Positions 5,056 through 58,898 are shown, numbered from the stretch's first letter. The stretch is 64,000 nt of DNA from an uncultured Gemmatimonadales bacterium (GCA_963748035.1 CAVVHO010000003.1:646500-710499); one strand, 5' to 3'. Numbers and translations: made by a program. The notes: generated by a model not told the origin, from the letters alone.

Positions 5056-5056
5056 T

Positions 5057-5084
5057 GCTGGGCGGGTGAGCGGGGCAGCCCAGC
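5057..5084. terminator. Hairpin between convergent genes, possible terminator
   Basis: GCTGGGC (5057-5063) pairs with GCCCAGC (5078-5084); no clear U-tract. Confidence 0.35.
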
Positions 5085-5092
5085 CCACGATC

Positions 5093-42429: not shown

Positions 42430-42517
42430 TTGGCTACCTCCAACTCAAGCGTGACCGGTGAAGGGAGAAGCGTGAAACTGTGAGAGGCGAGATAGACTTC
42501 ACGGGAGTGGGCCCGTT

Positions 42518-44824
42518 TCACGATTCAGCTTTCAGACTTGGTCTTGCCTGGCCCCTCAAACGAAGGCTGTTCGACACGACGCTAACCGAACTCATCGCCA
42601 TCGCGGCAGCGGCTAGGGCTGGACTGAGTCGCCACCCGACTATCGGGTACAGAGCGCCGGCTGCCACAGGTATGCAGATGACGTTGTAAATGAATGCCCA
42701 AAAGAGGTTCTGGCGGATGATCCTGAGGGCGGCGCGGCTCAGGCCGATCGCCGTAGCGACACCGTGCAGATCTCCGCGCACTAGCGTTATCTGCCCGGCG
42801 CTCATCGCGACATCGGTACCGGTGCCCATCGCGATCCCGACATCGGCCTGCGCCAGGGCGGGGGCGTCGTTGATGCCGTCGCCGACCATGGCTACGACCT
42901 TGCCTTCCGTCTGGAGCCGACGGATCTCCACCAGTTTCTCCTCTGGAAGGACCTCGGCCATAACCCGGCTGATGCCCACTTGTGAGGCGACCGCTTCGGC
43001 CGCCGCTCGCTGATCTCCGCTCAGCATCACGACATCGATTCCGGCGGACCGAAGGGTCGCGATGGCCTGGCTGCTGGTCGCTCTGATGGGGTCCGCGACG
43101 ACAATCTCGCCTGCGAAGGCACCGTCAACGGTGACGTAGACGCTGGTCTCGGTGGATCCCCCTGCTGCCCCAAGGCCAAGACGCTCGAGCATTCTCCTGT
43201 TCCCAACGGCGACACGGCGGCCATCCACCACGCCCCTTACCCCGACACCGGATTCGCTTTCGAAGGACTCCGGCTGGGGCAGTTCGAGACGACGATCTTC
43301 AGCGGCGCGCACAATTGCACCGGCCAGCGGGTGTTCGCTCGGCCGCTCCAGGGCGGCGGCCAGGCGGAGGAGCTCCCCGGAAGTCCACTGCTCCGCGGTT
43401 TCGATCCGGGTCACGGTCGGCTTGCCCTCCGTTATGGTCCCGGTCTTGTCCAGAAGGACGGTGTCGACCGCGCCGGCCCGCTCCAGCGATTCGCCCCCCT
43501 TGATCAAGATGCCCAGCTCCGCCCCGTGCCCCGTGGCCACCATCACGGCCGTGGGCACCGCCAAACCCATGGCGCAGGGGCACGCGATGATCAGTACTGA
43601 AACCGCTGAAACCAGCGCGTTCAGGGCGCGCGGCTCGGGCCCCAAGGCCCACCACGCCACAAACGTGGCGAGCGCAATTGCCATCACGACGGGTACAAAC
43701 ACGGCCGAGATGCGATCAGCGAGGCGCTGAATAGGCGGCCTGTTCCCTTGCGCGTCGCGGACCAGGCGGAGAATTCGGGAGAGCACGGTGTCGCGGCCCA
43801 CCCTGAGCGCCCGCATCCTCAGAGAACCGTTCCCGTTGAGGGTCCCGGCCACCACCTCGTCTCCCGCCTGGCGGGTTACCGGAAGAGGCTCGCCGGTAAG
43901 CATGGACTCGTCCACCGCACTCGTGCCGTCCACGACCAGGCCGTCTACCGGGATCCGCTGACCTGGGCGGACCCGCAGCTCATCCCCCGGAAGCACCGAG
44001 GCGATGGGGACCTCCTCCTCGGTGGTTCCCGTGATTCGGGTAGCGAACTCGGGGCGAAGGCCGGCGAGGCGGCGCACGGCAGCACCGGTCCGGTGCATGG
44101 CGCTGGTCTCGAACAAGCTGCCCAGCAGGAGGAGGGCGACAATCCACACAACTGCTTCGTAGTACACCTCGGGGGTGAGGCCGTGTGCGTGGAACCATCC
44201 CGGCCAGAATGTGGTCGCCAGGCTGAAGGCCAGGGCGACACCGGTGCCCAGAGCGATGAGTGTGTTCATGTCCACGGCCCGATGGTATGCCGCCACCCAG
44301 GCGCGAACATAGAATTGCCTCCCGGCCCATGTGACTACCGGGAGGGTTAATCCGAGCAGTAGCACGCGGAGCAGATCCGGCGAGAGACTGAAGAGGCCGG
44401 GCAACAACTGGCGCACCGGCGTACTCAACCACATCATGAGGCGCATAAACGGATCGGGCACAGCGTGCGCCGAGTCCATGAGCGGCATACTGAGCACCAT
44501 GGTCAGCACCGCCGCAACCAGACCGAACCCAACCTTCCGACGGAGCCGGCGAAGCTCGGCGTCGCGCTCGCGATCCTCCTGATCAAGTTCCGCCTCGATC
44601 GTCAGATCCGGAGCCGGCAGCTCGGCGCCATATCCGGTTTCCCGGATGACGTTCAGGAGATCTCCGGGCGAGGTTCGTACCGGATCGTAGGCGACGGTGG
44701 CGGAATTGGTCATCAGGTTCACGGTCGCCGCAGTCACACCGGGCGACTTCTCGAGCGAGCGCTGGATCCGGGCGCTACACGCGGCGCAGGTCATCCCGGT
44801 GACGTGAATCGTAGAATCAGACAC
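42518..44824 (-). CDS. copA: Cu(I)-translocating P1B-1 ATPase
   Basis: [31 protein letters not shown] and MAMSS motifs; GTG 44824 overlaps the copZ end. Confidence 0.96.
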
Positions 44825-45029
44825 CGCCCATCGCCTCGACGCGGTATCCTGCTTCCTCAATGGCGGCCTTCGCACGGTCTGCGGCGGCCGGATCAGTTAC
44901 CTTGAGCTCAGCCCGGCCGATGCGCACCGACTTCACCTCAACGCCGGCAACAGTGCCCAGTGCACGATTGACAGCGTTGAGACAGTGACCACAGCTCATT
45001 CCGGAGATCACTAACTCAATATTTTGCAT
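44817..45029 (-). CDS. copZ: Copper chaperone CopZ (HMA)
   Basis: 70 aa, GMSCGHC, AIEEAGY. Confidence 0.93.
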
Positions 45030-45055
45030 TGTTTTAGCCCCATGTCGCGTGGCAT

Positions 45056-45126
45056 TGGTACCCTACGGCTGCCTCAGCAACGTACAGTAGGAGTATCGGG
45101 TACACAAGTAGGTGGTGGGGGTATAC
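45056..45126. promoter_or_regulatory. Candidate CsoR operator sites in the copZ / GAF-gene divergent region
   Basis: GGTACCCTACGG, TACAGTAGGAGTAT and GTAGGTGGTGGGGGTATAC resemble the TAC-C/G-tract-GTA pseudo-palindromes bound by CsoR; imperfect. Confidence 0.4.
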
Positions 45127-45176
45127 GAAAACCGCAGACTAGAAACGGGGCACAGTCTCTGCTCGCGAAAGAGCTT

Positions 45177-46787
45177 ATGCCGTTGGACGAAGCCGAGTTC
45201 CGACAACTGATACCGCTGCTCCATCCGCGCACGCGCATCCACGATATGGATGTGCTGAAGGCGTGGTATGAAGCAGTGGCCGATGCGCTGCGAGGAGAGT
45301 TGCCGACGGACCTCCTGGCCATCTGGATTTTCGACGCAGACGGAACTCCGATCCTGCTTGAACCTGAAGCGCTCCTCGAGGACAACCTCGAGGTTCCCAG
45401 CGCCACTCCGATCGCCAATCAACACTTGCTGGATGCCCTCGAAATCCGTATCCGGCGGGCAGGGTATGGCTCGGTTGTGCTGCACCCTATCCGTCATGGT
45501 GGACAGGACGTCGGGTTACTGCTGCTTACCTGCTTCGCACCGCATGCCTATGGGGTGCGTGCTGCATCGCTGCTCGACGCCGCGGCGGATGTAATGGCTC
45601 CGATGCTCGCCCGGGTGGTCCGTGCGAGCACGGGACCGGAGGAACCCCACGCAGAACATCTTCCCGCCCTCCTGCAGGAACCCGAGGGACCGGTTTCCGA
45701 TCGAGTGCGGGACCGCGCCCGGGAGGGCACGCTATTCGAGACGCTCTCCGACGCGATTGGAGGGGCTGGCACGCCTCGCGACCTGATGCTCGCGCTTTCG
45801 TTCGCGTTGCAGCCAGTCCTTCCGCACGATGCCTACGAGTTGCTGCTGCCGGATTCTGGTGGCGAGAACTACTACCGGGTCGGATTGCATGGCCACGGCG
45901 GCCTTTGGGGCGACCCGAGCCTGGTCGCGGACCGATCCATCCTGGATCCGGCGACCATGTTTGGCGAGCATGAGTCGATCCTTGTGTGGGACGCATCCGC
46001 CTCGGAGATGACGCAGGTGCCGGAACTGATCACGATGCGCGGACCTGAGGAGCCGCCGCGAAGCCTCGTCGGCGTGAAACTCCGGGTTGTGGAGCGGCTG
46101 GTCGGATATCTGCTATTGGGCAGTGGAGGTCCGGGGTTCTACCGCGAGGAGGATGCGGCCCTGCTCGATCGCGTCGGGGCGCTGCTCGCGCCGCGGATCG
46201 ACAATCTCGTGCTCGCGTGGCAGTACAGCGTCCTCCGTGGCCAGCTCGATCTGCTCCGGCATGTGCCGATGCACTTGGCGCAGGCTGCGGAGTTGCTCGC
46301 GACCACGGTGTTTCTCGGGGAGGGGAGCCAGGTGTTCATGCAGCAGGTAGCTGCCGTGCTGCCGGTCAGAGCGCTGGAGTTCGCGGTGCGCCTCGCGGAC
46401 GATCAGCGGGTCGCAGTCGTGAAACCCGGAATTCCGACCCCGCTTGCCGATCTTCCTCAAGAACCAATAGAGGGGACCGGCGTGGCTCAGGTGGTCCGCG
46501 GGGAACTGCCGTTCTTGCTCTCGACTGAGGAACAGGATAGCGGAGGGCATGTGGCGGTGCTGGTGGTGCCACTGCGAACAGAGGGGCGCATCATCGGGGC
46601 GATGGCCATGACGGCGCTGGGCCTATCGCCCTTTTCGCGCAATGACCTTGCGCTGGCGCAGCAACTGGCTGATCTGGTGGCTCCTCACCTGGATCTGGCC
46701 CGACGCGCCGGCGCGGCGGCGACGCCGTTCATTCCGGGTTGGAAGCGTCCTACTCTCAGGCCCGATCGAGAGCCGAAGAACCAATAG
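45177..46787 (+). CDS. Multi-GAF-like domain protein with no recognisable output domain
   Basis: Repeated GAF-type endings (HPIRHGGQDVGLLLL...Y, GVKLRVVERLVGYLLLGS...FYREED, VPLRTEGRIIGAMAM...FSRND); start ATG 45177. Confidence 0.65.
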   Translation: MPLDEAEFRQLIPLLHPRTRIHDMDVLKAWYEAVADALRGELPTDLLAIWIFDADGTPILLEPEALLEDNLEVPSATPIANQHLLDALEIRIRRAGYGSVVLHPIRHGGQDVGLLLLTCFAPHAYGVRAASLLDAAADVMAPMLARVVRASTGPEEPHAEHLPALLQEPEGPVSDRVRDRAREGTLFETLSDAIGGAGTPRDLMLALSFALQPVLPHDAYELLLPDSGGENYYRVGLHGHGGLWGDPSLVADRSILDPATMFGEHESILVWDASASEMTQVPELITMRGPEEPPRSLVGVKLRVVERLVGYLLLGSGGPGFYREEDAALLDRVGALLAPRIDNLVLAWQYSVLRGQLDLLRHVPMHLAQAAELLATTVFLGEGSQVFMQQVAAVLPVRALEFAVRLADDQRVAVVKPGIPTPLADLPQEPIEGTGVAQVVRGELPFLLSTEEQDSGGHVAVLVVPLRTEGRIIGAMAMTALGLSPFSRNDLALAQQLADLVAPHLDLARRAGAAATPFIPGWKRPTLRPDREPKNQ

Positions 46788-46793
46788 CGGGGT

Positions 46794-47690
46794 CTAGCCG
46801 TTCAGCCCAGCGTGACGCAGGGCGTCGGGATGCACCGGCGGAGGATGCTGTTCGCCTTCCTTGGCCCATCGAAAGAAAATGACCCCAAACCCGAACCACA
46901 CCGGCAGGTCGCCAACCACTTTCATCAGCAATCCCGCCACCTGCTGATCCTGCTGGGCAGTCAGGGGATCGAAGATCCGCGGCGCCAACTCGTAGGTCCG
47001 GTAGAACGGAAACTCCGCGAAGGTCAGGAAAGCTGAAGGGATGATTGGTATCAGGGTCGAGGCAAAGAGGTAGGCCATCTTCATTGGTCTGCCCATCCGC
47101 ACAACTTCGGATGGCCCCATCACCGGCCACCACAGTAGCGCTCCTCCCACTAGCCAGCTGAGATCGATGAGCAAGGCGCCGGTCTGCGTCACCATGAGGG
47201 TGTCCACGACAGCCGGGATGTGGGTGACGAGAAGGATGGTGTTGAACCCGGCGAGCCCGATCCACGGTCTGCCGCCGTCCCGCAATACCCGGTTCAGGAT
47301 CGGGCGGCTCAACGCCTCGCGTATCCAGGAGGTAGGCACCGCCAGGATCAGGCACGGTGGCGCGACCATCACGAGGAGGACGTAGGTGATGGTGTGAAAG
47401 CTCGCGAGGTATCCGGCGCCCAGTGCGCCGATGGGCCAGTCGAGGGCGAGCCAAATGCTGACAACGCCCGCGAGGAACCACGCCTGCTGCTGGCGACTCG
47501 GTGGCTCGGCCCTTAATGAGCCCCTCACTCCCGGGTCGCGCTGGCTCGCTCCCAAGGGTTGCGCGGTCGTGGCTCGGCGGCTGGCGTACAGGTAAGAAAG
47601 TGCGAGGCACGCCACAAACAGCCAAACGCCGGGGTAGGCCTTCCATTCCCAGGTCCAGGGCTGTCCGGTCGCCGAGCACCACCACTGCAC
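46794..47690 (-). CDS. ctaG: Cytochrome c oxidase assembly factor CtaG (caa3 type)
   Basis: LDWPIG, SFHTITYVLLVMVAPP, WWP, DQQVAGLLMK; multi-TM. Confidence 0.85.
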   Translation of the reverse strand: MQWWCSATGQPWTWEWKAYPGVWLFVACLALSYLYASRRATTAQPLGASQRDPGVRGSLRAEPPSRQQQAWFLAGVVSIWLALDWPIGALGAGYLASFHTITYVLLVMVAPPCLILAVPTSWIREALSRPILNRVLRDGGRPWIGLAGFNTILLVTHIPAVVDTLMVTQTGALLIDLSWLVGGALLWWPVMGPSEVVRMGRPMKMAYLFASTLIPIIPSAFLTFAEFPFYRTYELAPRIFDPLTAQQDQQVAGLLMKVVGDLPVWFGFGVIFFRWAKEGEQHPPPVHPDALRHAGLNG

Positions 47691-47692
47691 TG

Positions 47693-48325
47693 TCAGCTGC
47701 CCTTCGCCATCAACTGCAGGTCCCTCGCCCAGTCAGTCTGACGGACCCCGAAGGGGTATATCACGTGGGCGAGATTGTCACGGGTGAAAGCCAGGACGAA
47801 CGCGCTGTGCCCGATGCTGTAGGTGCTGTCGTTCGGGCCGGCCTCTCGCTCGATCGGAGCAAGATGCAGTTGCTTCATCGCGCCGAAAATGGCGACGCTG
47901 TCGCCGGTGAGTCCTATGAAGCGCCGGTCGAACTTGTCGAGCCAGGTCCGAATAACTTGCGGGGTGTCCCGTGACGGGTCAGTAGTTACGAAGACCACCT
48001 TCACGCTCTGGTTCACTTCCGGACCAAGAGTCGAGAGGGCGGCCGCGATGTTGGCCATGTGTACGGGGCACACATCGGGACAGTGCGTATAGCCGAAGAA
48101 GAGCAGCGCGACGTAGCCGACTGTTTCCTTCCGGAAATCGTACGGCTTGCCGTCAGTGGTCGTCAGGGTGAAGTCGGGTTTGGGAATCGGTGGGTTAATC
48201 TTCGGACCGGCAAGCCCGTCCGGATTGAAGATCTTCGAGTCGGTGGGTTTGCAGCCGACACCAGCGAGTACGCCAATCGCCAGCAACAGAAACAGCCGGC
48301 GGAGGCGTGGCAGAGGCAGAAGCAC
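47693..48325 (-). CDS. SCO1/SenC family copper chaperone (paralog 2)
   Basis: FFGYTHCPDVC, DPSRDT, FIGLTG, YSIGH; lipoprotein-like GVGC; start 48325 (GTG) or 48331 (TTG). Confidence 0.92.
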   Translation of the reverse strand: MLLPLPRLRRLFLLLAIGVLAGVGCKPTDSKIFNPDGLAGPKINPPIPKPDFTLTTTDGKPYDFRKETVGYVALLFFGYTHCPDVCPVHMANIAAALSTLGPEVNQSVKVVFVTTDPSRDTPQVIRTWLDKFDRRFIGLTGDSVAIFGAMKQLHLAPIEREAGPNDSTYSIGHSAFVLAFTRDNLAHVIYPFGVRQTDWARDLQLMAKGS

Positions 48326-48327
48326 GG

Positions 48328-48963
48328 TCAACCGCCCTTCACGAGGAGCTTGAGATCGTTGGCCCACTGATCTGGACCAATCCCCGAGGGATAAGCCACG
48401 TGGGCGAGATTGTCACTGGTGAATGCGAGCACCAGCACGGTGTGATTGATCGTATAGACGGACGAGTCGGCCCTGGCAGGCACTGGCGCTATCGGATGTC
48501 CCAATCGAAGCTGCGTGAAGGCGTAAGCGACGGATGCGCTGTCGCCGGTAAGCCCGATGAAGCGATGGTCGAAATGGTCCAGCCAGGTCCGAATGACCGT
48601 CGGTGTATCACGCCCCGGATCCACTGTAACGAATACCACCTTGATCCGGTCAATTACTTCGGGATCGAGACCCTTCATCGCGGTTGCGATGTTGGCGAGC
48701 TGCACCGGGCAGAGATCAGGACAATGGGTGTACCCGAAAAACAGCAGTGTGAGGTAGCCCTCAGTTTCCGCCTTCAGGTCGAATCGCTTGCCTTCTGTGG
48801 TCTCGAGGACCAGCTCCGGTTTTGGCAGTGGCGGAAGAATCTGTGGCCCGGAAAGGCCCTCGGCATTGAAGCCGCCGGAACCGGATGGTTTGCAGCCGAG
48901 AGTCACGAAGGCGAGCGCGGAAGCCTGCCAGCAGAGCGAGCGGAATGCGAGTGGAAGGGTCAT
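48328..48963 (-). CDS. SCO1/SenC family copper chaperone (paralog 1)
   Basis: FFGYTHCPDLC, VDPGRDT, FIGLTG, YTINH; lipobox TLGC. Confidence 0.92.
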   Translation of the reverse strand: MTLPLAFRSLCWQASALAFVTLGCKPSGSGGFNAEGLSGPQILPPLPKPELVLETTEGKRFDLKAETEGYLTLLFFGYTHCPDLCPVQLANIATAMKGLDPEVIDRIKVVFVTVDPGRDTPTVIRTWLDHFDHRFIGLTGDSASVAYAFTQLRLGHPIAPVPARADSSVYTINHTVLVLAFTSDNLAHVAYPSGIGPDQWANDLKLLVKGG

Positions 48964-48968
48964 CTGGC

Positions 48969-49904
48969 CTAGAGCTTGGGTGCGGGCAGTGCCACCAGCA
49001 CCGCGGTCGTGCCGATGAGCAGGAGGCCGATCAGCAGTTCAAGTGTAGCGGAGCGGCTGAGCAGGCGGGTGGCGTCGTTGGAGCCGAGTCGTGGACTGAG
49101 CCGGCGCCAGTTCCACGCCCCCAGGGCCATCGTGCCGAAAAGAAGGCCCACCTTGATGAGCAGGGTACGTCCGTAGGTCGTGCCGAAGAGACTGCTCAGG
49201 TCGCCCACGTAGGCGTACGACATGAAACCGCCGGCGGTCACCGCGAGGCCGGCTCCAGTGAGCGCGACCGGAGAGAATGCCGCGACCATCCGGGCAACTG
49301 TGGCGGGATCTGGCGGATCGAGCCTGAGCGCAGGGCGGACCCCGGCCACGGCCATCGCAAAGAGTGTCCCCAGCCACATGCCGCCACCGATCAGGTGTAC
49401 GGCATGCAGGCCAACTCCAAGCGTGCGTCCCCACGGATGCTCAACCGCGTGGCCGGTCAGCGGAGACACCGCGGCCACGGCCACCGAGGCTGCGCCAAGC
49501 ACTGCTACGCCGGTGGCCGGGCGTCGCCTGCCCAGCCACGCGACGGGAAGGGCGAGCAGGGCGACTGCCACCTGAGCTTGCCAGCCGCGGCCCCAGGCCG
49601 TCTGGAACAGGACAGGTCGGGCTGCTGCCCAGTTGAGCGGTTCGAGTGGATCGAGAAACGAGTGCACCTGGCCCCAGGCCCGAATCAAATGCGCGACGAG
49701 GAGCAGCAACACCGCGGCGACGGCGAGCGTCCATGCCCCTCCCAGAGAACGTGCCGCAAGCGAGCGTTCGTCGTCGTCAGTTGCACGCCAACGCGGAATC
49801 AGGACGATATGAACGCAGGCACCCACCAAGGCGAGCGCGCCTATGTACGCGAGCCCGCGCCCGAAGGCGTAAAGGTCGATCGGAAGCGCTCCCTCCTCGT
49901 GCAC
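48969..49904 (-). CDS. copD: CopD family copper import membrane protein
   Basis: TGHA, HAVHLIGGGMWLG, FSPVA, YGRTLLIK; about 8 TM segments. Confidence 0.88.
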   Translation of the reverse strand: MHEEGALPIDLYAFGRGLAYIGALALVGACVHIVLIPRWRATDDDERSLAARSLGGAWTLAVAAVLLLLVAHLIRAWGQVHSFLDPLEPLNWAAARPVLFQTAWGRGWQAQVAVALLALPVAWLGRRRPATGVAVLGAASVAVAAVSPLTGHAVEHPWGRTLGVGLHAVHLIGGGMWLGTLFAMAVAGVRPALRLDPPDPATVARMVAAFSPVALTGAGLAVTAGGFMSYAYVGDLSSLFGTTYGRTLLIKVGLLFGTMALGAWNWRRLSPRLGSNDATRLLSRSATLELLIGLLLIGTTAVLVALPAPKL

Positions 49905-49905
49905 G

Positions 49906-50286
49906 TCAGGGAGCGGGCTTGCTCGCCGGATCGAAAGTGAAGTAGTAGGTCCCGCGGACCACGTGGCCGTCCCTTGAGCCCGTCTTCCACATGACCATGT
50001 ACCTGCCCGGCGCGAGGGTCACGGGCACCGGTCCTGCGATGGATAGGCTGTCCTCTGTTGCGAGCATCTTGATGACCGCGACCGGGGAGTGGTCTTCTTT
50101 CATCAAGGTGGCGCCAGAGAGAGCCACCTCAGGGCGCTCGTTAAACCAGAGTTGAACCTGCTTGGGAGCCGCTGCCACGGTATCATCCACGGCCGGGTCG
50201 GCCTTGACCAAATGGGTATGGATGTTCACCGCGGCTCCGAGCAGGAGCGCGGCGACGGCAGGGGGGATCAGAGACTTGGCAAGCAT
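49906..50286 (-). CDS. copC: CopC periplasmic copper-binding protein
   Basis: Signal peptide, N-terminal HTHL, DGH; no Met-rich Cu(I) site. Confidence 0.9.
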   Translation of the reverse strand: MLAKSLIPPAVAALLLGAAVNIHTHLVKADPAVDDTVAAAPKQVQLWFNERPEVALSGATLMKEDHSPVAVIKMLATEDSLSIAGPVPVTLAPGRYMVMWKTGSRDGHVVRGTYYFTFDPASKPAP

Positions 50287-50366: not shown

Positions 50367-50819
50367 ATGGGCCTGCGACAACTTCGTATACGCTCCTGGC
50401 CTCTCGCGGCCCTGCTTCTGGCCCTTGGCTGCAGCTCCCGACGACCGTTGGCAGAGGCCGGGGGTATCCGAGTCGAGTCGGGGTATGCCCACCCCGCTGC
50501 GGGGGACGTCGCGGCGGCCTATCTACGCGTTCGCAACACTGGCAGTTCCTCGGACACCCTTGCCGAGGTGTCCGGAGGCAGTTTCGGTCACGCCATGGTC
50601 ATGGGGACGACCGGCGGGCGTATGGAGGCAATGGCGCCGATGGTCATTGCTCCAGGACAAGTTGTCAGCATGGCGCCGGGCGGAGTCCACGTGATGCTGG
50701 AAGGGGTCACTTCGAATCCGGCGATCGGCGATACGATGCACCTCATCCTCCATTTCTCCCACGCGGGGGAGATTCCCATTGCGATCCCCGTCGTGGCCTA
50801 CGGTGAGATGCCCGAGTGA
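50367..50819 (+). CDS. PCu(A)C copper chaperone
   Basis: AAAYLRVRN; H-x10-M and HVM ligands (HAMVMGTTGGRM...PGGVHVML); lipobox ALGC. Confidence 0.85.
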   Translation: MGLRQLRIRSWPLAALLLALGCSSRRPLAEAGGIRVESGYAHPAAGDVAAAYLRVRNTGSSSDTLAEVSGGSFGHAMVMGTTGGRMEAMAPMVIAPGQVVSMAPGGVHVMLEGVTSNPAIGDTMHLILHFSHAGEIPIAIPVVAYGEMPE

Positions 50820-50872
50820 CCGACAACCCCCCGCCGCGGCCTGCATTCAGCCCAGCGGGAGGTAGAACGGCC

Positions 50873-53125
50873 TCAGAAGGTCGTGCTGATGCGCATCAGG
50901 AATGTACGACCCGCCCCTGGATTCTCGGCGTTCGTCTTGATCCGGCTCAGGAAGTTTGCGTACGCCTTGTCGAAGAGATTTCGCACGGCGAAGTCCACAT
51001 GGGGAGCATGAGGCCCGCCACCGAGCCCGAAACCCGTGCCGGCGTTGATCAGGGTGTAGGGCTCCGACTGATAGCCGCGGCCACCGAACGCGCCTGCGAA
51101 GAAGGCTGCCTCCGCTGGATCCAAACGCGTCTGCCTGGTATTGCTCTCTCCGCCCAGCGAGAGATAAGGATCGCGGACTAGTCCGTCGCGCGAAGCCTCA
51201 AGCCGTACCTCATAGGTCGCCCTGAAAGGCGGCATGGACGGGAGCGGATCGTCGTTGCTGGTGTTGGTGCCGCGGACGTAGTCCGCGGTGCCTTGGAAGT
51301 GCAGCCAGCGGGTGGGATGAAGTTGTCCCGCAACCTCGAAGCCCTGCAACCTCGCATCACCCTGGGTGACGTCATAGATCTCGAAGCCGGAGCCCGGATC
51401 GGTCGTTCCTGTGGGGACGGTGTAGATGTAATCGTTGATCCAGTTGACGAACGTACCGACTTCGAATGCGAGATTGGTCGTCTGAACCCGGATTGCCAGA
51501 TCACCGTTGAGAGATTTTTCGGTGCGGAGATTGGGGTTGCCCCGCTCGAACGCCACCGTGCCTTCATGTACGCCATTGGCGAAGAGATCGAAACTCGAGG
51601 GGGCCCGAAAGCCGCGTCCTACGTTCAGCACAAGTGCGGCGGGCTCCGCGAACTTGTACAGAATGCCCAGGTTCCCGGTAACGGAATTCCAACTCTGCGC
51701 GTCGGGGACCCCAGCGATGGTGGTATCTTCCAGTGCGAGGTGGCGGTAGTCGTACCGCGCCCCGACCGAGAGGTCCCAGCGCCCGCCGTGCAGCTGCTCG
51801 AATCCGAAGACCGCCAGGCCGCTTGTCTGGCTGTTGGGAATCAGGGTCTCGTTGCCGAATTTCTCGAATTCGGTTCGCATCCCGCTTACACCGAAGACTC
51901 CCGACAGCGACCCAATCGGCGCTTGGTGAAGGTGGGCGTCCAACGTGTAGTTGTGTGACAGGAGTCCGAGCGATACGTCGCTGGTGGTGTCATCTTCGAA
52001 CTCGCGCCGTCGATTACGCTCGAAGCCTGCACTCACCTCAAGCCGTGATCCCCCGACCGGGAAGAGGCCATCGAGCCGTGCCCGTGTCGCTGCGATCCGT
52101 TGCGTGGGCGTAGCCGCCGGATCCTCATCGGTGAGTGAAATCCGCTCATCCCGTTGGGCGAACGAGGCGGCGAGGTTTCCCCAGTCGCCTCGATCGCCTA
52201 CAGCGAAGCTTCCGCCGAGGGCGCGGTTGCCGCTGTTCCAGAGGGTGTAATCCGGAGTTTTGACATTGCCGGCCGAGCGGCCGCTCACAGTTGCGCGGAA
52301 GCCGAGACCACCGCTCGCACCGTTGACGAGGAGAGCGCCGACTGGCTCTCGCGCGTTGCTTGAATACGAAGCGGTTGCCTCGCCGTCGATCGTCGACTTC
52401 CCCGGCTCCGTAGAAGGCAACGCCCGTGGAATGACGTTCACGACGCCACCGAGCGCGTCGGATCCGTACAGAACACTGGCGGGTCCGCGAATCACCTCGA
52501 TGCGATCAGCGAGTGCGGTCTCGATGTTGGGTCCGTGCTCGTCGCCCCACTGCTGGGTCTCCATCCGCTGACCGTTGTCTAGCACCAAGACACGATTTGA
52601 AGTCAATCCGCGAATCACCGGCTTTCCAATCCCCTGACCGGTACTCAGGCTGTGGACGCCGGCGACCTGATTGAGGGTCTCGCCCAAGCTGGGGGCCTGC
52701 GCACCGCTCAGGTCGGCACCTTGAATGACGGCAGTAGGCTGGGGGGAGACAAGCGGATCAATGGTCGAGGTGGTGGCCGTGACTTGGATCGGGGGCAGCT
52801 CGACCAGCGATGGCTTGAGGGTGAAATCCTGGTTCAGGTCCTGATTCGCAAGGCGAAGAGCTCGGACCTGCGGGGCATAGCCGATGGCGGAAACGGAAAA
52901 GGTAAACACCCCTGCGGGCAGGCCTGGCACAGTGTAACGACCCTCGACGTCGGTCAGGACGACACGCCCGGCTTCGACGACCGCGATGCGCGCGGCGAAG
53001 AGAGGCGTGCCGTCGGTTGAGGTAACGCGGCCGGCGACGGTTGCGCCCGGAAGGGACGCGGCAGGTTGAAGCGGTGTGGAGAAGGCTGTGAGCGCGAGCA
53101 ACGCGCTTGTGAGACTCGCTAGCAT
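50873..53125 (-). CDS. TonB-dependent receptor, ZnuD-like
   Basis: N-terminal carboxypeptidase-like domain; plug KPVIRGL...QQWGDEHG...RIEVIRGPASVLYGS; DLFANGVHEGT..FERGNPNL; terminal Phe; SD GAGGAG. Confidence 0.9.
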   Translation of the reverse strand: MLASLTSALLALTAFSTPLQPAASLPGATVAGRVTSTDGTPLFAARIAVVEAGRVVLTDVEGRYTVPGLPAGVFTFSVSAIGYAPQVRALRLANQDLNQDFTLKPSLVELPPIQVTATTSTIDPLVSPQPTAVIQGADLSGAQAPSLGETLNQVAGVHSLSTGQGIGKPVIRGLTSNRVLVLDNGQRMETQQWGDEHGPNIETALADRIEVIRGPASVLYGSDALGGVVNVIPRALPSTEPGKSTIDGEATASYSSNAREPVGALLVNGASGGLGFRATVSGRSAGNVKTPDYTLWNSGNRALGGSFAVGDRGDWGNLAASFAQRDERISLTDEDPAATPTQRIAATRARLDGLFPVGGSRLEVSAGFERNRRREFEDDTTSDVSLGLLSHNYTLDAHLHQAPIGSLSGVFGVSGMRTEFEKFGNETLIPNSQTSGLAVFGFEQLHGGRWDLSVGARYDYRHLALEDTTIAGVPDAQSWNSVTGNLGILYKFAEPAALVLNVGRGFRAPSSFDLFANGVHEGTVAFERGNPNLRTEKSLNGDLAIRVQTTNLAFEVGTFVNWINDYIYTVPTGTTDPGSGFEIYDVTQGDARLQGFEVAGQLHPTRWLHFQGTADYVRGTNTSNDDPLPSMPPFRATYEVRLEASRDGLVRDPYLSLGGESNTRQTRLDPAEAAFFAGAFGGRGYQSEPYTLINAGTGFGLGGGPHAPHVDFAVRNLFDKAYANFLSRIKTNAENPGAGRTFLMRISTTF

Positions 53126-53205
53126 GGCTGCTCCTCAGAACTGGCGTTCGCCTCCGGCACATGCGTTTCCGGAGGTAGGCTCGGGATCTTGAATAGATTC
53201 GCAAG

Positions 53206-53544
53206 TCAGCCGAACGAGGGAGGAGCGCGAGACCGGTAGGAGGGCTGGTGACGGACTGAGGGATGCAGTTGGGGCGTCGGGAATACGGATTTCAGCCCGT
53301 AGGCCGGATGGAAGGCCGTTTCGGTGGCGGCGGCTTCAGTTGCACGCAGATCAGCGAGCAATCGGTTGAGCGGGCAGTGACCACCGTGGTCGCTGGAACC
53401 ACCCCGGCTCTCAAAGTGGACACGCTCCTCCTGGGGTTTGCCGCGGTGCTCGAGGAGAAGGTCGGCCGCTGGCAGCCCAAAGTTCCCCGCGACGTAGGCG
53501 AACGCGAGAACGAGGATTCGGGGTCGAGCTGCCATGTCGTGCAT
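53206..53544 (-). CDS. RAPP-terminated leader protein (DUF2946/CruR-like uORF) 1
   Basis: 112 aa: hydrophobic anchor, GNFGLPAADLLLEH, HGGHCPL, C-terminal SRAPPSFG; starts 4 nt after the permease stop and ends 80 nt before the TonB receptor. Confidence 0.75.
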   Translation of the reverse strand: MHDMAARPRILVLAFAYVAGNFGLPAADLLLEHRGKPQEERVHFESRGGSSDHGGHCPLNRLLADLRATEAAATETAFHPAYGLKSVFPTPQLHPSVRHQPSYRSRAPPSFG

Positions 53545-53547
53545 ATG

Positions 53548-54393
53548 CTAAGTACCGGGCACGCCTGATTTGAGCACCTTGCGACCGAGGAACGCGAGGA
53601 GGAGCAAAAGCCCGAAGACGCAAACCTCCACCGGTCCGGTGGGCAGGTCCTTCCAGAATGACACGCCGATGCCCAGTGCCGAGGCTAAGACGCCGGCGAC
53701 CCATGCGATGATTGCGAGGAGGCCGCGACGCCGAGTGAACTGAAACGCGATGGCTGCCGGGATCACCAGGAACGAGAAGACGAGCAGCACGCCGACGATT
53801 GGCACTGAGAAGGTGATCACGACGCCGAAGCTCAGATAGAACCAGAAATCCCACCAGCGGAGTTTCCAGCCGTGCGCGGCGGCCTGCTCCGGCTCGAACG
53901 AAATGGTAAGGAATTTCCGTCTGAGAACCCAATGAAACAGGCCCACGATCGTATACACGGCGGCGAGACGACCGATCGCGGGCCAGCCCACCCATAGCAG
54001 GCTTCCCACCAGAATGTCCTTGATGGCCTCCCCACCTCTCGGTGATCGATCGGCGACCAGGATGGCGGCGGCCGAGGCGACTACATACACGATGCCAATG
54101 ATGGCCTCCTGCGGCACCCTGCCCTGACCGTGCTCCGAACGTGTCGCGGCGAAAACCGCAGCGCCGGCGGTTGTGAACCCGAAGGCGTAGACGAAGGACA
54201 TCGCGGAACCGGAGTCGGCGCCAACGAGGATCGCGACCGTGGAGCCGAGCGCGGCGACCTGGGCGAGCGCCAGGTCCACGAAGATGACTTCTCGCGCCAG
54301 GACGTGAAGTCCGAGGTAGGAATGGACTGCGACGATCACCATGCAGGCTACCAGCGGCGCCAGCCAGAGGCTGTGGATCAGCTGAGCAAGCAT
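53548..54393 (-). CDS. Metal ABC transporter permease (ABC-3, ZnuB-like)
   Basis: HSYLGLHVLAREVIFVDLALAQVAALG, QEAIIGIVY, GSLLWV, VGVLLVFSFLVIPA; TGATG coupling to the SBP gene. Confidence 0.9.
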   Translation of the reverse strand: MLAQLIHSLWLAPLVACMVIVAVHSYLGLHVLAREVIFVDLALAQVAALGSTVAILVGADSGSAMSFVYAFGFTTAGAAVFAATRSEHGQGRVPQEAIIGIVYVVASAAAILVADRSPRGGEAIKDILVGSLLWVGWPAIGRLAAVYTIVGLFHWVLRRKFLTISFEPEQAAAHGWKLRWWDFWFYLSFGVVITFSVPIVGVLLVFSFLVIPAAIAFQFTRRRGLLAIIAWVAGVLASALGIGVSFWKDLPTGPVEVCVFGLLLLLAFLGRKVLKSGVPGT

Positions 54394-55433
54394 CAGGAAG
54401 CTCCCTCGCGGAACCCGGCTACGAGGCCATTGATCCAGGCGTTCATCAGATCGAAGTAGGTCTCCACGCCCGGGGCGCCATGGGTATTCTCGGGAACGAT
54501 GACCGCGTGAGCGCCGGTCTTCTCCGCAACCTGCTGAATCTGGTTGTGGTCGAAATAGTTCGAGGCGAAGAGCAGCGGGATCTTCCGCTCCTTCATGAGG
54601 GCGATCACCTCTTCGACATGTCTGGGGGTAGGCGGAATCCCCGGCTTGGCCTCGATGTAAGTGGCGCAGGTGACCTGAAAACGATGGCTGAAGTAGGCCC
54701 ACTCCTTGTGGTAACAGGCGATTTCCTTCCCCCGGAATGTCTCGCTGGTCTTGAGCCAACCGCCGAGTCGGTCGAGCAACGGCTTGCCCTGATATTTCGT
54801 AGCGGCCAGGAAGGAGGAAAGCTTGTCGCTCTTGAGGAGATCGAGGGCGGTGGCCGGCGTCAGGATCCCGACCAGTTCGGCGCCCATGGTGGCTTCGAGG
54901 ATTCGCTTCTCGAAATCCTGTTCCCGGCCGGCGAAAAAAGCCGCCTCACTTGGGGCCACGCGCTGCAGGCCGGTGAGAATATTCCGGGCGATGATGATGG
55001 CGTTCAGTGGGTCGGTATGAATGTGCGGGTTGCCATCGGCATGAATGTCACCCTCGCTGCGGTTCAGCGATGTCGGCACCTCCAGGAGCGTGATGCCGGT
55101 GTACGCGGTGACATACCCGGGGCCACCCTCTGACACCTTGCGGTTGTTGGCACGATCGAGGAGGGCAGGGACCCAGAGCTCGAGATCAAGGCCGGTGGTG
55201 ACGAACAGATCCGCGTCCCGGAGCACAGCGACGAAGCTGGGCTTGGGCTGAACAAAATGCGGATCCTCATCCCCCTGGGCGATTGAGGTCACGGTCCCCC
55301 GGTCGCCGGCGATTTCGCGCGCGATGGCGCCGTAGGTGGTGAGGCTGGTAACGATCTTGAGCGGCGGCTCGGCGACTCGGCGGCTCGGCGGCTCAGGGGA
55401 GAGCGTCGCAAGGATCAGGGCCAGGAGCAACAT
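54393..55433 (-). CDS. Metal ABC substrate-binding protein (cluster A-I, ZnuA-like)
   Basis: DPHFVQPKPS, GDIHADGNPH, YHKEWAYF, EAKPGIPPT. Confidence 0.9.
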   Translation of the reverse strand: MLLLALILATLSPEPPSRRVAEPPLKIVTSLTTYGAIAREIAGDRGTVTSIAQGDEDPHFVQPKPSFVAVLRDADLFVTTGLDLELWVPALLDRANNRKVSEGGPGYVTAYTGITLLEVPTSLNRSEGDIHADGNPHIHTDPLNAIIIARNILTGLQRVAPSEAAFFAGREQDFEKRILEATMGAELVGILTPATALDLLKSDKLSSFLAATKYQGKPLLDRLGGWLKTSETFRGKEIACYHKEWAYFSHRFQVTCATYIEAKPGIPPTPRHVEEVIALMKERKIPLLFASNYFDHNQIQQVAEKTGAHAVIVPENTHGAPGVETYFDLMNAWINGLVAGFREGAS

Positions 55434-55446
55434 TCTGTCTACCTTT

Positions 55447-55474
55447 CGGCTAACGGCTAACGGCTAACGGCTTA
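55447..55474. repeat. Heptamer tandem repeat (CGGCTAA)x3 + CGGCTTA
   Basis: Read directly in the spacer between the OMP and SBP genes. Confidence 0.9.
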
Positions 55475-55480
55475 CGATCC

Positions 55481-56833
55481 TCAGTATGTCTCATGCTTGT
55501 GCGGACCCATGGCGAATACGGCCTGCAGCAGCAACTGGTCTTGATTGCCTGCGACGCTGTCGTGGTGATGCTGGCCCTCTAGGCGCAGGAAGACGAATTC
55601 GCTCTCCCACCATGTGATCGTCGGTGAGATCTGCCATTCCGTCGAAAACGGGCCTCTGGCGGCCTCGACGTAGTCGTACCGACCACCGAGGATCCAGCGC
55701 TGGCTCAGGCGGGCGGTCAGGTCAACGAAGGCGCCATAGCGCGTTGTCTGGACTCCGAGTTCATGTGCCCGCAACCGGTACCCCTCCATCCGCAAGGTGA
55801 CTTCCTTGCGGGTGCCCGCATTAGGCGGGCGCCAGGTTAACCGGAGGTCGGCGCCGAGCACTCGTCCGCGGACGCTATCCGCGTTGTCACCGCCCAGCGC
55901 GGTGAAGCCGATCTGGCCATAGGTGCTGCGGGAGAGTTGCCAGAAGTTCTGCACCCGCCCGAGCAGGGTGCCGTGGTCACCGGTACCGTAGAGCGGCTGG
56001 CTCTCGGCGGTGGTTCCCTGCAACCAGATCTCGTGGGTGCCACCACCGATTGACAGCGGGAGCGTGGTGTAAAGCGAAACCCCGGCGCCCGACAACCCCT
56101 CGTCTCCGAGGAATCGGCGGTAGACCAGAGGGTATTCGGACTCCGGAAGAGCGTGCAGATGCCAGCGATTAAGGTCGCCGATCTGTTCACGGAAGAGCCC
56201 GACGTCGGCCCGGAGGCGACCCGGAAGCCCGGTCCAGTACAAGTACCCCTCCTCGACGCCGACAGCGTCGTGCTCAAAGGTCAGGACCACCTTGGCATTG
56301 GAGTAAGGGTCCAGCGTGGACTGGAGTGCGACTTCGAACTCGCGTGCATCACCCCGCAGACCATCGTGCCGCTGCCCGCCAAGCCGGATGTCGCCGGTCG
56401 CGCTGATCTCCGGATTCATGGCTGAGCCGCTCCGTTGGCGGCCCACGAACTTGGTTTCACCGCTGGGGGTCGTGTCCGGCGGCGCCCCCGGTGGCGCGCC
56501 CGTCGCGGCGGCGGCCGCTGCCCTGAGGGCCGCTAGGTCATCGCCACCGGTAGTGTCGGTCGGCTGCGCCACGGCTTGCCGACACCGTTGCGCGATCAGC
56601 CGTTCGAGGCGCGCGCTCAAATCGGCAATGGCCCGATGCAATGAATCCGCACCGGCGGGGATGCTCAGCGCCGGACCGGTGGGGCAGGAGCCGCGCTCCA
56701 GCGAATCCAGTCGAGTTGTCAGTCGTTCAAGCAGGCGCTGGTTGGTGTTCGCGGGCTGCTGAGCGTGCAGGGGGACGGCCGTCAGGCCTGTCAGCCCTAT
56801 GAGGGATGTCCAGATGGCATTGTTGTGCCGCAT
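55481..56833 (-). CDS. Outer-membrane beta-barrel protein with N-terminal coiled coil and His-rich C-terminus
   Basis: Signal peptide; MNPEISATGD, VEEGY, GLFREQIGDLNRWHLHALP; C-terminal HHHDS and GPHKHETY; first gene before the SBP and permease. Confidence 0.75.
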   Translation of the reverse strand: MRHNNAIWTSLIGLTGLTAVPLHAQQPANTNQRLLERLTTRLDSLERGSCPTGPALSIPAGADSLHRAIADLSARLERLIAQRCRQAVAQPTDTTGGDDLAALRAAAAAATGAPPGAPPDTTPSGETKFVGRQRSGSAMNPEISATGDIRLGGQRHDGLRGDAREFEVALQSTLDPYSNAKVVLTFEHDAVGVEEGYLYWTGLPGRLRADVGLFREQIGDLNRWHLHALPESEYPLVYRRFLGDEGLSGAGVSLYTTLPLSIGGGTHEIWLQGTTAESQPLYGTGDHGTLLGRVQNFWQLSRSTYGQIGFTALGGDNADSVRGRVLGADLRLTWRPPNAGTRKEVTLRMEGYRLRAHELGVQTTRYGAFVDLTARLSQRWILGGRYDYVEAARGPFSTEWQISPTITWWESEFVFLRLEGQHHHDSVAGNQDQLLLQAVFAMGPHKHETY

Positions 56834-56901
56834 TTCAAATGACCCGTATCGCCCCGGAGGCCCGGTGGCGGAAAGGGGAAAGCGAGTTGTGTGAGCGCCA
56901 G

Positions 56902-57243
56902 TTAGGCGCGGAAGGGAGGAGCGCGGGAGGGGGGAAGAGTGGAGTCAGACCGTCCGGTCTGAGATTCGACCGCAACGATTGGAAGCACTGAGTCCGGCGG
57001 CGTGACTTGCGCGGAGACGGCTTGGGAGACCAGGCACCCATCCGTCACGGCTGGCTGCTGAAGCGGGCACACCTGGGCGTGGGTAGGCTTCCCGCCCAGG
57101 TCGACGAGGGTCCGCTCCGAAACAGCTGCCCCGGGCTGGCCGTGGAACACCAGACTGTCGAACAACGGCAGGCCGAAGCCCCCGACCAACAGGGCGAGCA
57201 GCAGGGTAAGGGCCCGTACGCGGACGATCAGGGACCGGCTCAT
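56902..57243 (-). CDS. RAPP-terminated leader protein (DUF2946/CruR-like uORF) 2
   Basis: 113 aa from ATG 57243: hydrophobic anchor, GGFGLPLFDSLVFH, HAQVCPL, C-terminal SRAPPFRA; ends 68 nt before the OMP gene. Confidence 0.75.
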   Translation of the reverse strand: MSRSLIVRVRALTLLLALLVGGFGLPLFDSLVFHGQPGAAVSERTLVDLGGKPTHAQVCPLQQPAVTDGCLVSQAVSAQVTPPDSVLPIVAVESQTGRSDSTLPPSRAPPFRA

Positions 57244-57296
57244 CGTAGGATGAAGGTAGTAGGGGGGTCCGGGGTCCGCGAGGCCACCGGGGGGTC

Positions 57297-58898
57297 TCAG
57301 GGCCGGGCCTCGAGGATCGGGTTTACCCTCGGATACTCCGCGCTGATGCCGGGGCGCCGGCTGGGACCTTCGGCGGGTAAAATGAACCAGAAGGTCGCAC
57401 CGGTGCCGTAAATGGACTCGCATCCGATCGTTCCACCATGCATTTCGACGAATCTCCGAGCGAGCGCGAGCCCCAAGCCCGTCCCCTGCTGCTGCCGGCT
57501 GGCCGAACTGTCCACCTGGCTGAACTCGTGAAACAGTTTCGGCATGTCCTCCTGCTTTATCCCAATTCCGCTGTCTTGCACCGAGACCCAGAGGGCATCG
57601 CGCGAGACGAGGCGGACCGCCTCGCCGGGTGAGTCGACCGGAAGCGGAAGGGGTGCCCGTGTCGCGATAGCCGAGACGATCATCTGACCGCTTTGCGGAG
57701 TGAACTTGGAGGCGTTGGAAAGCAGGTTGAACAGGATTTGCCTTATCCGCGTGCCATCAGCCAGCACCGGGAGCGGTTGGGTACCGATCTCGAGCTTGCA
57801 CTCCTGCTGCTTGGAGGAGCGGAGCGGTGCGGTATCGGTGACGGCGCCAAGAATGAGCTCACGCAGGTCACTGGGCGCGAGGATGAGCGTCATCCGGCCG
57901 GCCTCGATCTTGGAGAGGTCCAACACGCTGTTGATTAGGCCGAGCAGGTGCTGACCGTTGCGGAGGATGGAGTCGAGGAACTCGCGCTGGGTCTCATTGA
58001 CCTGTCCGAGTTCCTCCGTGAGCAGCAAGTCGGAGAAGCCGTTGATGGCGTTGAGCGGAGTGCGGAGCTCATGCGACATATTGGCGAGGAATTGGCTCTT
58101 GAGCTCTGTGGCCCGCTGCAGCTCGCGATTCTTCGCGGCCAGGACCTCTTCTTTGCGACGGCTCTCCTCCAGCACATGGGCGCGGTCGAGCCCGACGACG
58201 ACCTGGTCGCCCAAGGTCTGGAGCAAATGCACATCAGCATCGGTGAACGGCTGTCCATCACGGCGATTGACCACCGCGAGAACGCCAATGACCAGGCCGG
58301 CCGAACGGAGCGGGACGGCGACAATGGTCTTGAGCGGCAGGGCCGATAAGGGATAATTCCGCGGGTCCGCCGCCATGTCCGGAGAGGTGAGGGCGGTCTC
58401 ATTCGTCACTACCCAGCCTAACAGGGAATTGTCCACCGGGAGCAGTTGGTGGCGGGTTGCCGCGATAGGCCCCGCCCCGGCCACAATTCGGACGAACCGA
58501 CCCTCCTCGACGACGAAACCGATGGCCGCGCCATCGCTGGCCAGCAGGTCTGCTGCTGCCTCCGTCACGACTTGCAGCACCTGGTCCAGGTTCTCCCCCG
58601 AAACCATGGCTTCGGCGACCCTCCGGAGCCAGTTCAGCTCGCGGTCGCGCAGTTGAACGCGGGACTCGGCGTCTCGCTGCCTCTCCTCACGCCGCAACCG
58701 GTCGCGACTGACCAGCCCGAGGCCGATGCCCATGAGGGTGATCGCCCCCGCCAGCAGCCCCCAGCCGAACGACACCCCACGGCCAACAAGCCACGCTCCC
58801 GCGACGCCCGCGGGCAGCGCCGTCAGGAGCAGTGGAGTCGCCCGGGGGATGATGGCCCGGGAAGATCGCACTGCTCTGGGGGGCGTAGGAGGCGTCAT
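57297..58898 (-). CDS. Membrane GAF-sensor histidine kinase (no receiver domain)
   Basis: Two TMs, GAF, FLANMSHELRTPL, N box NLLSNASKF, DSGIG, GTGLGL. Confidence 0.93.
   Translation of the reverse strand: MTPPTPPRAVRSSRAIIPRATPLLLTALPAGVAGAWLVGRGVSFGWGLLAGAITLMGIGLGLVSRDRLRREERQRDAESRVQLRDRELNWLRRVAEAMVSGENLDQVLQVVTEAAADLLASDGAAIGFVVEEGRFVRIVAGAGPIAATRHQLLPVDNSLLGWVVTNETALTSPDMAADPRNYPLSALPLKTIVAVPLRSAGLVIGVLAVVNRRDGQPFTDADVHLLQTLGDQVVVGLDRAHVLEESRRKEEVLAAKNRELQRATELKSQFLANMSHELRTPLNAINGFSDLLLTEELGQVNETQREFLDSILRNGQHLLGLINSVLDLSKIEAGRMTLILAPSDLRELILGAVTDTAPLRSSKQQECKLEIGTQPLPVLADGTRIRQILFNLLSNASKFTPQSGQMIVSAIATRAPLPLPVDSPGEAVRLVSRDALWVSVQDSGIGIKQEDMPKLFHEFSQVDSSASRQQQGTGLGLALARRFVEMHGGTIGCESIYGTGATFWFILPAEGPSRRPGISAEYPRVNPILEARP

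Follow-up and report, generated by a model that had tools for sequence, protein, structure and literature searches.

The window analysed in this study is a stretch of 64,000 nucleotides (nt) of DNA from an uncultured Gemmatimonadales bacterium (GCA_963748035.1 CAVVHO010000003.1:646500-710499), in which positions are counted from the first letter. Two short upstream open reading frames, uORF1 and uORF2, lie at the two ends of the segment from 53,206 to 57,243 on the minus strand, and they are probably arrest leaders that act in cis on the outer-membrane transporter genes next to them. Pfam searches and fold prediction gave the operon order uORF2, porin-type outer-membrane protein, ZnuA-family binding protein, ABC-3 permease, uORF1 and TonB-dependent receptor, as shown in Table 1, which bears out the gene order read from the sequence alone in a preliminary description of the window. 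The ATG of uORF1 starts 3 nt past the permease stop, the distances to the next gene are 80 nt after uORF1 and 68 nt after uORF2, and no ABC ATPase gene was found within the operon.

In both leaders a positive N-region comes first and then a hydrophobic 15-mer, for which the Kyte-Doolittle means are 1.98 and 2.36 (residues 14-28 in uORF2), and the AlphaFold2 (AF2) model of uORF1 contains helices at residues 4-33, 53-56 and 58-69. Judged from the hydrophobicity and the AF2 helix, both would carry an N-terminal export signal or anchor. The motif G-x-F-G-L-P-x2-D-x-L-x2-H is common to the two, ranging from G20 to H33 in uORF1 and from G22 to H35 in uORF2, and so is H-x3-C-P-L, with H53/C57 and H55/C59, respectively. 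The putative functional residues are D28, H33, H53-x2-H56-C57 and SRAPP (R106) in uORF1, and D30, H35, H55-x3-C59 and SRAPP (R107) in uORF2, each closed by a tail of three residues, with the PP at -5/-4 from the end. The single cysteine stands in the context HGGHC57PLN in uORF1 and HAQVC59PLQ in uORF2, and the CxxC of the CruR type was found in neither. The Cys-to-Arg distance is 49 in uORF1 (C57 to R106) and 48 in uORF2 (C59 to R107). The SRAPP end of both is encoded by the same 13-mer, CGCGCTCCTCCCT, which has exactly two copies in the window (53217-53229 and 56913-56925, minus strand) against an expected count of 0.02, and two matches were reached in 0/100 shuffles. The lengths, the shared motifs, the SRAPP end, the 13-mer and the two spacings had all been described earlier and are upheld by the sequence.

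Orthologs of uORF1 are 50-77% identical to it, and those of uORF2, at 68-90% identity, retain all the motifs. A profile search detected only these two leader copies in the genome, with uORF2 matching at E 2e-49, and a scan of the whole genome for frames with R[AG]PP at the C-terminus yielded no further credible leader, only noise in non-coding frames. A database protein of 99 aa (P0009), from an 11.6-kb contig, is identical to uORF2 over 42 residues and then departs from it by a one-base frameshift; the probable cause is a misassembly or, in a near-identical strain, a broken allele.

The outer-membrane protein after uORF2 has no Pfam family and no sequence relative in the PDB. Its AF2 model, built on 14 homologs (predicted local distance difference test score 76.6), contains 16 strands, and its best Foldseek matches were chitoporin, OprO, Omp32, OmpU and DcaP, with E values from 2e-10 to 1e-7, so that 'porin' is a fair name for it. 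This porin family has coiled-coil-like helices at the N-terminus, a linker rich in Ala and Pro, and GPHKHETY as an invariant C-terminus, and a gene for a ZnuA-type protein always comes next. The closest solved structure to the ZnuA-family binding protein is the polyspecific YfeA. In its clade H59, H131, H137, C240, H242 and C256 are invariant, the usual fourth-ligand Asp column is not conserved and C240 stands two residues before H242, which is unusual for a cluster A-I protein and possibly makes the site thiophilic. The receptor falls below every NCBIfam cut-off (ZnuD, NF038289, 165 bits vs 950; TonB-copper, 62 vs 472), and its closest solved structure is ZnuD (E 4e-25).

Beyond the receptor lie genes of copper delivery and efflux, among which CopA and CsoR (42085-44875), by their sequence signatures, are the standard Cu(I) efflux pair. 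The divergent GAF-domain protein is found between the import and copper-delivery genes and CopA-CsoR, and it occupies the same place in many genera (L048, L049, L051, L055, L072 and L073). A sigma-70 promoter scan of 50500-57800 detected no promoter, and its one terminator-like hit falls within the receptor gene and stays under the shuffle expectation. No conserved operator was seen in the aligned regions upstream of the uORF2 orthologs.

Table 1. Coordinates of the leaders, their RNA elements and the neighbouring genes in the window, and of leaders in related loci (numbered within each locus).
Feature	Position	Strand	Remarks
uORF1	53206-53544	minus	112 aa; C-terminus ...YRSRAPPSFG, then stop; leader internal to the operon
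uORF2	56902-57243	minus	113 aa; C-terminus ...PPSRAPPFRA, then stop; leader at the operon head
RAPP-motif codons of uORF1	53218-53229	minus	
RAPP codons of uORF2, CGC GCT CCT CCC	56914..56925	minus	identical 13-mer; GCT, CCT and CCC are the family-preferred codons
CUCGCGCUCCUC, Arg-Ala-Pro codons of uORF1	53220..53231	minus	predicted pairing with the receptor Shine-Dalgarno
3' partner of the predicted helix	53115..53136	minus	Shine-Dalgarno GAGGAGC 53136-53130, ATG 53125, GCGAG 53119-53115
GAF-HisKA-HATPase histidine kinase	57297-58898	minus	end 53 nt before uORF2; syntenic in relatives
Outer-membrane protein	55481-56833	minus	450 aa; N-terminal helices and predicted 16-strand porin-type barrel; ends ...HKHETY
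ZnuA-family (cluster A-I) periplasmic metal-binding protein	54393-55433	minus	PF01297, E 1e-46
ABC-3 (ZnuB-type) permease	53548-54396	minus	PF00950, E 2e-30; same order in relatives
TonB-dependent receptor	50873-53125	minus	750 aa; Plug and barrel domains, N-terminal CarboxypepD_reg domain
PCuAC	50367-50819	plus	Pfam
CopC	49906-50286	minus	Pfam
CopD	48969-49904	minus	Pfam
Sco proteins (two)	48328-48963 and 47693-48367	minus	Pfam
CtaG	46794-47690	minus	Pfam
GAF-domain protein	45024-46787	plus	587 aa; Pfam
Cu(I)-type CopA (P1B ATPase)	42518-44875	minus	HMA CxxC, CPC, YN, MxxSS
CsoR	42085-42429	minus	Cys and H-x3-C
Efflux-operon leader, L039	11843-12187		
Efflux-operon leader, L054	11919-12329		
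Efflux-operon leader, L071	2874-3350		
Efflux-operon leader, L043	18111-18575		
L081 head leader, CxxC type	4922-5302	minus	
L081 internal leader, H-x3-C type	about 1225-1554		

A leader family with a fixed Cys-to-Arg ruler

Word-based searches recovered only three and eight relatives, and the profile made from them was then run against 1.84 billion representative sequences, yielding 205 representatives (50% identity) at E ≤ 1e-3, 37 of them at E ≤ 1e-10. Nearly all of these are 110-120 aa in length and match end to end. At least one member occurs in 96 of the 301 Gemmatimonadota genomes and in 40 of the 127 genera, and cluster look-ups of the family returned no names except 'hypothetical protein'. 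The leaders are real and conserved, and they form a large family.

The conservation was counted in a 129-member family alignment, with the residue numbers following uORF1. D28, C57, R106, P108 and P109 show no variation, and at least 90% of the members keep H33, H53 and A107. Histidine occupies C-4 in 127/129, and D-x4-H, with the Asp and His five residues apart, is found in 128/129, while a second Cys at C-7 (45/129) and a His at C-1 (40/129) are less frequent and the C+3 residue is never Cys (0/129). From Cys to Arg, 101 members measure 49 residues and 25 measure 48, within a whole range of 47-50. In 122 members RAPP is followed by a tail of 2-4 residues, and it is always 1-7 residues from the stop. 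The alignment shows poor conservation in the stretch that joins the Cys to RAPP; AF2 predicts this stretch as coil. This invariance excludes chance as the origin of the shared motifs, and the picture of conserved, exported RAPP leaders with Asp, His, His and Cys at a fixed distance, drawn at first from two sequences, holds across the alignment.

The position in cis was assessed in 40 loci from different genera, which contributed 68 non-identical leaders with a downstream ORF. Forty-two of the 68 lie directly 5′ of a TonB receptor and 15 lie 5′ of a porin homolog, which is usually followed by a ZnuA protein and a permease, so the coupling of each leader to an outer-membrane transporter gene, first noted at this locus, recurs in the relatives. 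The profile search that the preliminary description had suggested thus found homologs keeping R-PP, in all 129 aligned members, and the position upstream of a TonB receptor or porin gene, in 42 and 15 of the 68 leaders, respectively. Several leaders head heavy-metal RND efflux operons, with an outer-membrane factor, a CusB-type adaptor and an AcrB-type pump (Table 1). As one family heads both import and efflux operons, the metal effect must differ in sign among its members.

The leader-plus-gene modules are shuffled as units. The order is leader-receptor-leader-porin-ZnuA-permease in L072 and leader-receptor-leader-receptor in L044, and in L041 (G108:C108 63000-82999) one strand carries leader-porin-ZnuA, further on leader-receptor and again leader-receptor, followed by CopD, Sco, PCuAC and CtaG. 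In 13 of the 96 positive genomes, from eight genera and two families, two or three leaders lie on one strand within 6.2 kb, indicating that the serial layout is recurrent and not peculiar to this genome.

A strong synonymous bias is also seen in the codons of the motif, which were compared with the codon usage of the downstream genes for 69 leaders in loci L001-L082. The Ala codon GCT makes up 39% at the motif and 8% in the downstream genes; for the first Pro codon, the respective values are 52% and 10% for CCT, 25% and 9% for CCA, and 1% and 30% for CCC; for the second Pro codon CCC, they are 54% and 30%. The consensus GCU CCU CCC looks like an anti-Shine-Dalgarno (anti-SD) sequence, and the near-absence of CCC as the first Pro codon could avoid a CCC-C frameshift site, that is, +1 slippage under a stalled ribosome. 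The duplex energy between the RAPP codons and their own SD window was -12.1 kcal/mol family-wide, as compared with -11.2 kcal/mol for permuted partners and -11.0 kcal/mol for synonymously recoded codons, with the observed value being reached in 0/200 trials of each control, a significance that is overstated because the sequences are related. Together, the codon bias and the duplex energy point to family-wide selection at the RNA level. For uORF1, a helix between the Arg-Ala-Pro codons and the receptor SD (Table 1) was predicted in both the minimum-free-energy and the centroid structures.

Relationship to CruR, CutF and other arrest leaders

To our knowledge, CruR and CutF, both from Proteobacteria, are the only metal-sensing arrest peptides studied so far. 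CruR (Bp2923) of Bordetella pertussis is the DUF2946 (PF11162) leader of cruR-crtA(bfrG)-bp2921, an exported uORF in which CxxC occupies residues 90-93 and RAPP residues 139-142, with three residues left after it; the 45 residues between the two motifs are conserved in number and functionally required, with a change of +/-2 residues being tolerated and one of +5 not (PMC9426467). Arrest at its RAPP was demonstrated in vitro (PMC12992588), and CruR/CrtA operons carry Sco and PCuAC and have been tied to haem-copper oxidase function (PMC9426467, PMC12914433). The leaders examined here resemble CruR in being small exported uORFs whose first Cys stands 49 (uORF1) or 48 (uORF2) residues before the Arg of RAPP, against 49 in CruR, and which end in a three-residue tail, in the location of uORF1 immediately 5′ of a TonB-dependent receptor, and in the surroundings with Sco, PCuAC and CopC. 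By analogy, a stall would be expected to keep the uptake gene on and metal to lift the stall.

However, several features separate them from CruR. In place of CxxC they have one Cys (H-x3-C-x-L) together with D-x4-H after the anchor, and their intergenic regions measure 68 and 80 nt instead of 162 nt. CruR homologs were reported to be 'systematically' first in the operon (PMC9426467), whereas uORF1 lies inside its operon and uORF2 is first but stands before a porin. Among the cargo are a porin and a ZnuA-type ABC system, and the leaders come from Gemmatimonadota, not Proteobacteria, and score below the DUF2946 gathering cut-off.

The 'CutF-like' superfamily comprises 5,334 proteins in 29 sequence clusters with Cys, His or mixed sites, of which some occur in nickel/cobalt contexts; its commonest neighbours are OEP/RND, TonB receptors and PCuAC, and phyla apart from Pseudomonadota, Actinomycetota and Bacteroidota play a minor part in the survey (PMC9973294). 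Both leaders pass the rule filters of that survey (<150 aa, PP in the last 15 residues, an N-terminal signal and a same-strand downstream gene at <1000 nt), a likeness judged by filters and not by cluster placement, and the spectrum of neighbours in the present family, with OEP/RND efflux, TonB receptors and PCuAC, is similar. CutF of Rhodobacter capsulatus has a stem-loop which shields the downstream SD and is melted by the stalled ribosome (PMC9973294; bioRxiv 10.1101/2025.02.05.636593). It uses CxxxC and a PPP motif, unlike the single-Cys RAPP leaders, and copper induces its stall and turns on a detoxifying oxidase, which is opposite to the logic proposed for the import leaders. CruR and CutF thus differ in the sign of the metal effect, and the signal sequence is dispensable for CruR but needed by CutF (bioRxiv 10.1101/2025.02.05.636593).

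A link between the single-Cys leaders and the CxxC type was found in L081, from another genus of the same family, where the porin operon is headed by a leader of the CxxC type, with HDEATCAFCQ (HDEATCAFCQAAIFPPC) ... SRAPPxLRIV and a Cys-to-Arg distance of 49, and has an internal leader of the H-x3-C type. The CxxC-type group is abundant in Gemmatimonadales (at least 165 clusters), lacks Pfam annotation and gives weak DUF2946 hits. In hhalign, the H..C and SRAPP of the two groups are in register (E 4e-4). DUF2946 hits at E ≤ 0.1 were obtained for 24/129 family members, with the best being 7.6e-4; no member is annotated with DUF2946, and the whole genome holds no DUF2946 match over the cut-off. 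Since the sequence links are weak, the leaders were filed as CruR-like rather than as DUF2946 members: they probably work like CruR as its remote relatives, and are not demonstrated members of DUF2946. The comparison with DUF2946 that had been suggested therefore comes out mixed, with the anatomy being CruR-like and the Pfam score lying under the cut-off for uORF1 and absent for uORF2.

The leaders are probably a single-Cys branch of the known CruR/CutF class of metal-sensing leaders and do not represent a new principle. RAPP/RGPP uORFs before TonB receptors have been surveyed across Gram-negative phyla as an enriched class (PMC12992588), and together with the published CruR anatomy and mixed Cys/His CutF-like clusters this removes most of the novelty claimed for a new family with an undescribed ligand set. 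What probably stands as undescribed are the single-Cys D/H/H/C clade, the leader inside an operon, the members in Gemmatimonadota and the GCU-CCU-CCC bias. The literature yielded no description of an operon-internal leader, in keeping with the earlier suggestion of a new serial layout, nor of a single-Cys D/H/H/C clade or Gemmatimonadota members, and no Gemmatimonadota or ZnuA entries were found in the accessible parts of the supplementary tables of the CutF and CruR papers.

Proposed mechanism, candidate metals and rival explanations

We consider it probable that uORF1 and uORF2 are cis-acting, co-translationally exported arrest leaders of the CruR/CutF type that belong to a Gemmatimonadota single-Cys clade, with copper as the likeliest metal. 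The ribosome would stall once it has decoded Arg-Ala-Pro, while the A site holds the second Pro codon, and during the stall the downstream outer-membrane gene would be expressed. At uORF1, a ribosome parked on RAPP would free the receptor SD from pairing with the RAPP codons, so that the stall would mean 'on'; at uORF2, the gene might be turned on through the same freeing or through the blocking of Rho, as in CruR. At the stall, the H-x3-C would be about 51 residues from the peptidyl-transferase centre, just out of the ribosome or the translocon. If the P site holds the first Pro codon, C57 would lie beyond the ribosomal tunnel and about at the far end of the translocon, and the view that the Cys motif is placed across the membrane during arrest goes further than this length assures. 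D28 and H33 follow the anchor helix (AF2, 4-33) and would therefore sit at the outer face of the membrane, which makes metal bridging to the emerging H53/C57 a plausible releasing force. When the metal suffices, D/H/H/C would bind it, folding or pull would lift the stall, and synthesis of the porin-ABC system and the TonB receptor would be shut down. The likeliest metal, copper, would be taken up for haem-copper oxidase assembly.

Several points weigh against this arrest-leader reading. Against the profile of DUF2946, uORF1 scores only 17.3 bits (E 0.008, profile positions 50-117), short of the 23.7 bits set as the gathering cut-off, and uORF2 does not hit the profile; the hhalign probability for the H-x3-C and CxxC groups is only 35%, and common descent with CruR is not proven by the sequences. 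The fold of uORF1 has a z-score of -1.36, which is not significant, and CCUCC is always complementary to GGAGG, whatever the sequences. No RAPP:SD helix is predicted at the uORF2 junction, and of 61 family junctions only 15 had at least three expected RAPP:SD pairs; on these two counts, we rejected the view that an anti-SD helix is the universal mechanism. Sequence alone does not tell in which direction the metal acts, and a search of sequencing runs returned no RNA-seq run with the locus, only partial metagenomic DNA matches.

Two accounts without a metal-responsive stall were weighed against the same data. It is very improbable that the leaders are monitors of export or membrane insertion, in which the pull of the translocon alone lifts the stall and the His and Cys residues have another role. 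Leaders of this kind, such as ApdA, ApdP and SecM (RAGP), also join an N-terminal export or localisation signal to a C-terminal arrest module, RAPP in the Sec/YidC class (PMC12992588, PMC10987492), but they monitor Sec/YidC activity, whereas the genes downstream of the present leaders encode metal transporters, not Sec or YidC components, and D, H, H and C are invariant, each at a set distance to RAPP. Small periplasmic metal-binding proteins of an ordinary kind, anchored in the membrane and serving for instance as chaperones for the adjacent transporters, with an incidental RAPP and no regulatory stall, would account for the conserved metal-ligand residues and the adjacency to transporters; yet R-A-P-P is (near-)invariant, lies within 1-7 residues of the stop and follows the Cys by 47-50 residues, the stretch that separates it from the Cys is poorly conserved and predicted as coil, and the codons of the motif are selected at the nucleotide level. 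Since the CruR and CutF peptides are also undetectable in vivo (PMC9426467, PMC9973294), this account is the least credible of all those weighed.

The identity of the metal is less secure, and by our estimate copper is somewhat favoured, zinc is a distinctly lesser possibility and another metal takes up what remains. Copper is favoured by the conserved neighbours: the receptor gene is followed by PCuAC, CopC, CopD, two Sco and CtaG and, past the GAF protein, by CopA and CsoR; the same neighbours lie beside import modules in other genera; and in L043 the porin-ZnuA-permease genes are followed directly by CopZ-CopA-CsoR. This neighbourhood speaks against the earlier proposal of Zn, Ni or Co rather than Cu. 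Two facts tell against copper, namely that the binding protein is of the ZnuA family, with His at three ligand positions (H59, H137 and H242), and that the nearest solved receptor is ZnuD, so zinc stays in consideration. A sensing of zinc (or Ni/Co) by the same arrest-leader mechanism, with the operon as a ZnuD plus ZnuAB-type zinc importer and the leaders as relatives of CruR that respond to zinc, is unlikely though far from negligible. It would fit the PF01297 protein and its ABC-3 permease, the place of ZnuD among the best NCBIfam matches of the receptor, a His2Cys(Asp) ligand set that suits Zn(II) too, and the published finding that CutF-like clusters are not all copper-specific (PMC9973294). 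However, import modules adjoin PCuAC, CopCD, Sco and CtaG or CopA-CsoR in many genera, CopA and CsoR bear Cu(I) signatures, and in L081, from another genus, this porin operon starts with a leader bearing CxxC, a typical Cu motif. All the specific NCBIfam scores, for ZnuD and for the ZnuA-type protein alike, are far below their cut-offs (AztC, 86 bits vs 350), and the invariant C240 just before H242, together with the unconserved Asp column, looks unusual for a zinc or manganese protein. No Zur operator was identified, although no Zur-box search was made and the operator in this phylum is unknown.

Improbable, and more so than zinc sensing as such, is a Gemmatimonadota-specific design in which the D/H/H/C leaders are serial translational checkpoints on a single transcript gating the porin-ABC and TonB routes, the RAPP codons are selected to double as the anti-SD of the next gene and zinc is sensed, or the metals differ between the leaders. 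The different thresholds that the preliminary description ascribed to the two checkpoints are conjectural, although the tandem layout is conserved. If true, this design would include the first arrest peptide to respond to zinc, and import would be switched at two thresholds.

Metal-sensing arrest peptides, which were found recently, couple the extracytoplasmic encounter of a nascent chain to the expression of the next gene. With the CruR/CutF-type reading, the present locus extends this class to Gemmatimonadota with another ligand set and the same 49-residue ruler, and the comparison helps to define the essential parts of the sensor, namely one Cys, the ruler and RAPP. Leader-plus-gene cassettes are shuffled and stacked within operons, and their arrest codons appear to be under nucleotide-level selection. 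The two leaders in one operon are a natural paralogous pair for testing whether such sensors are tuned to different thresholds or metals.

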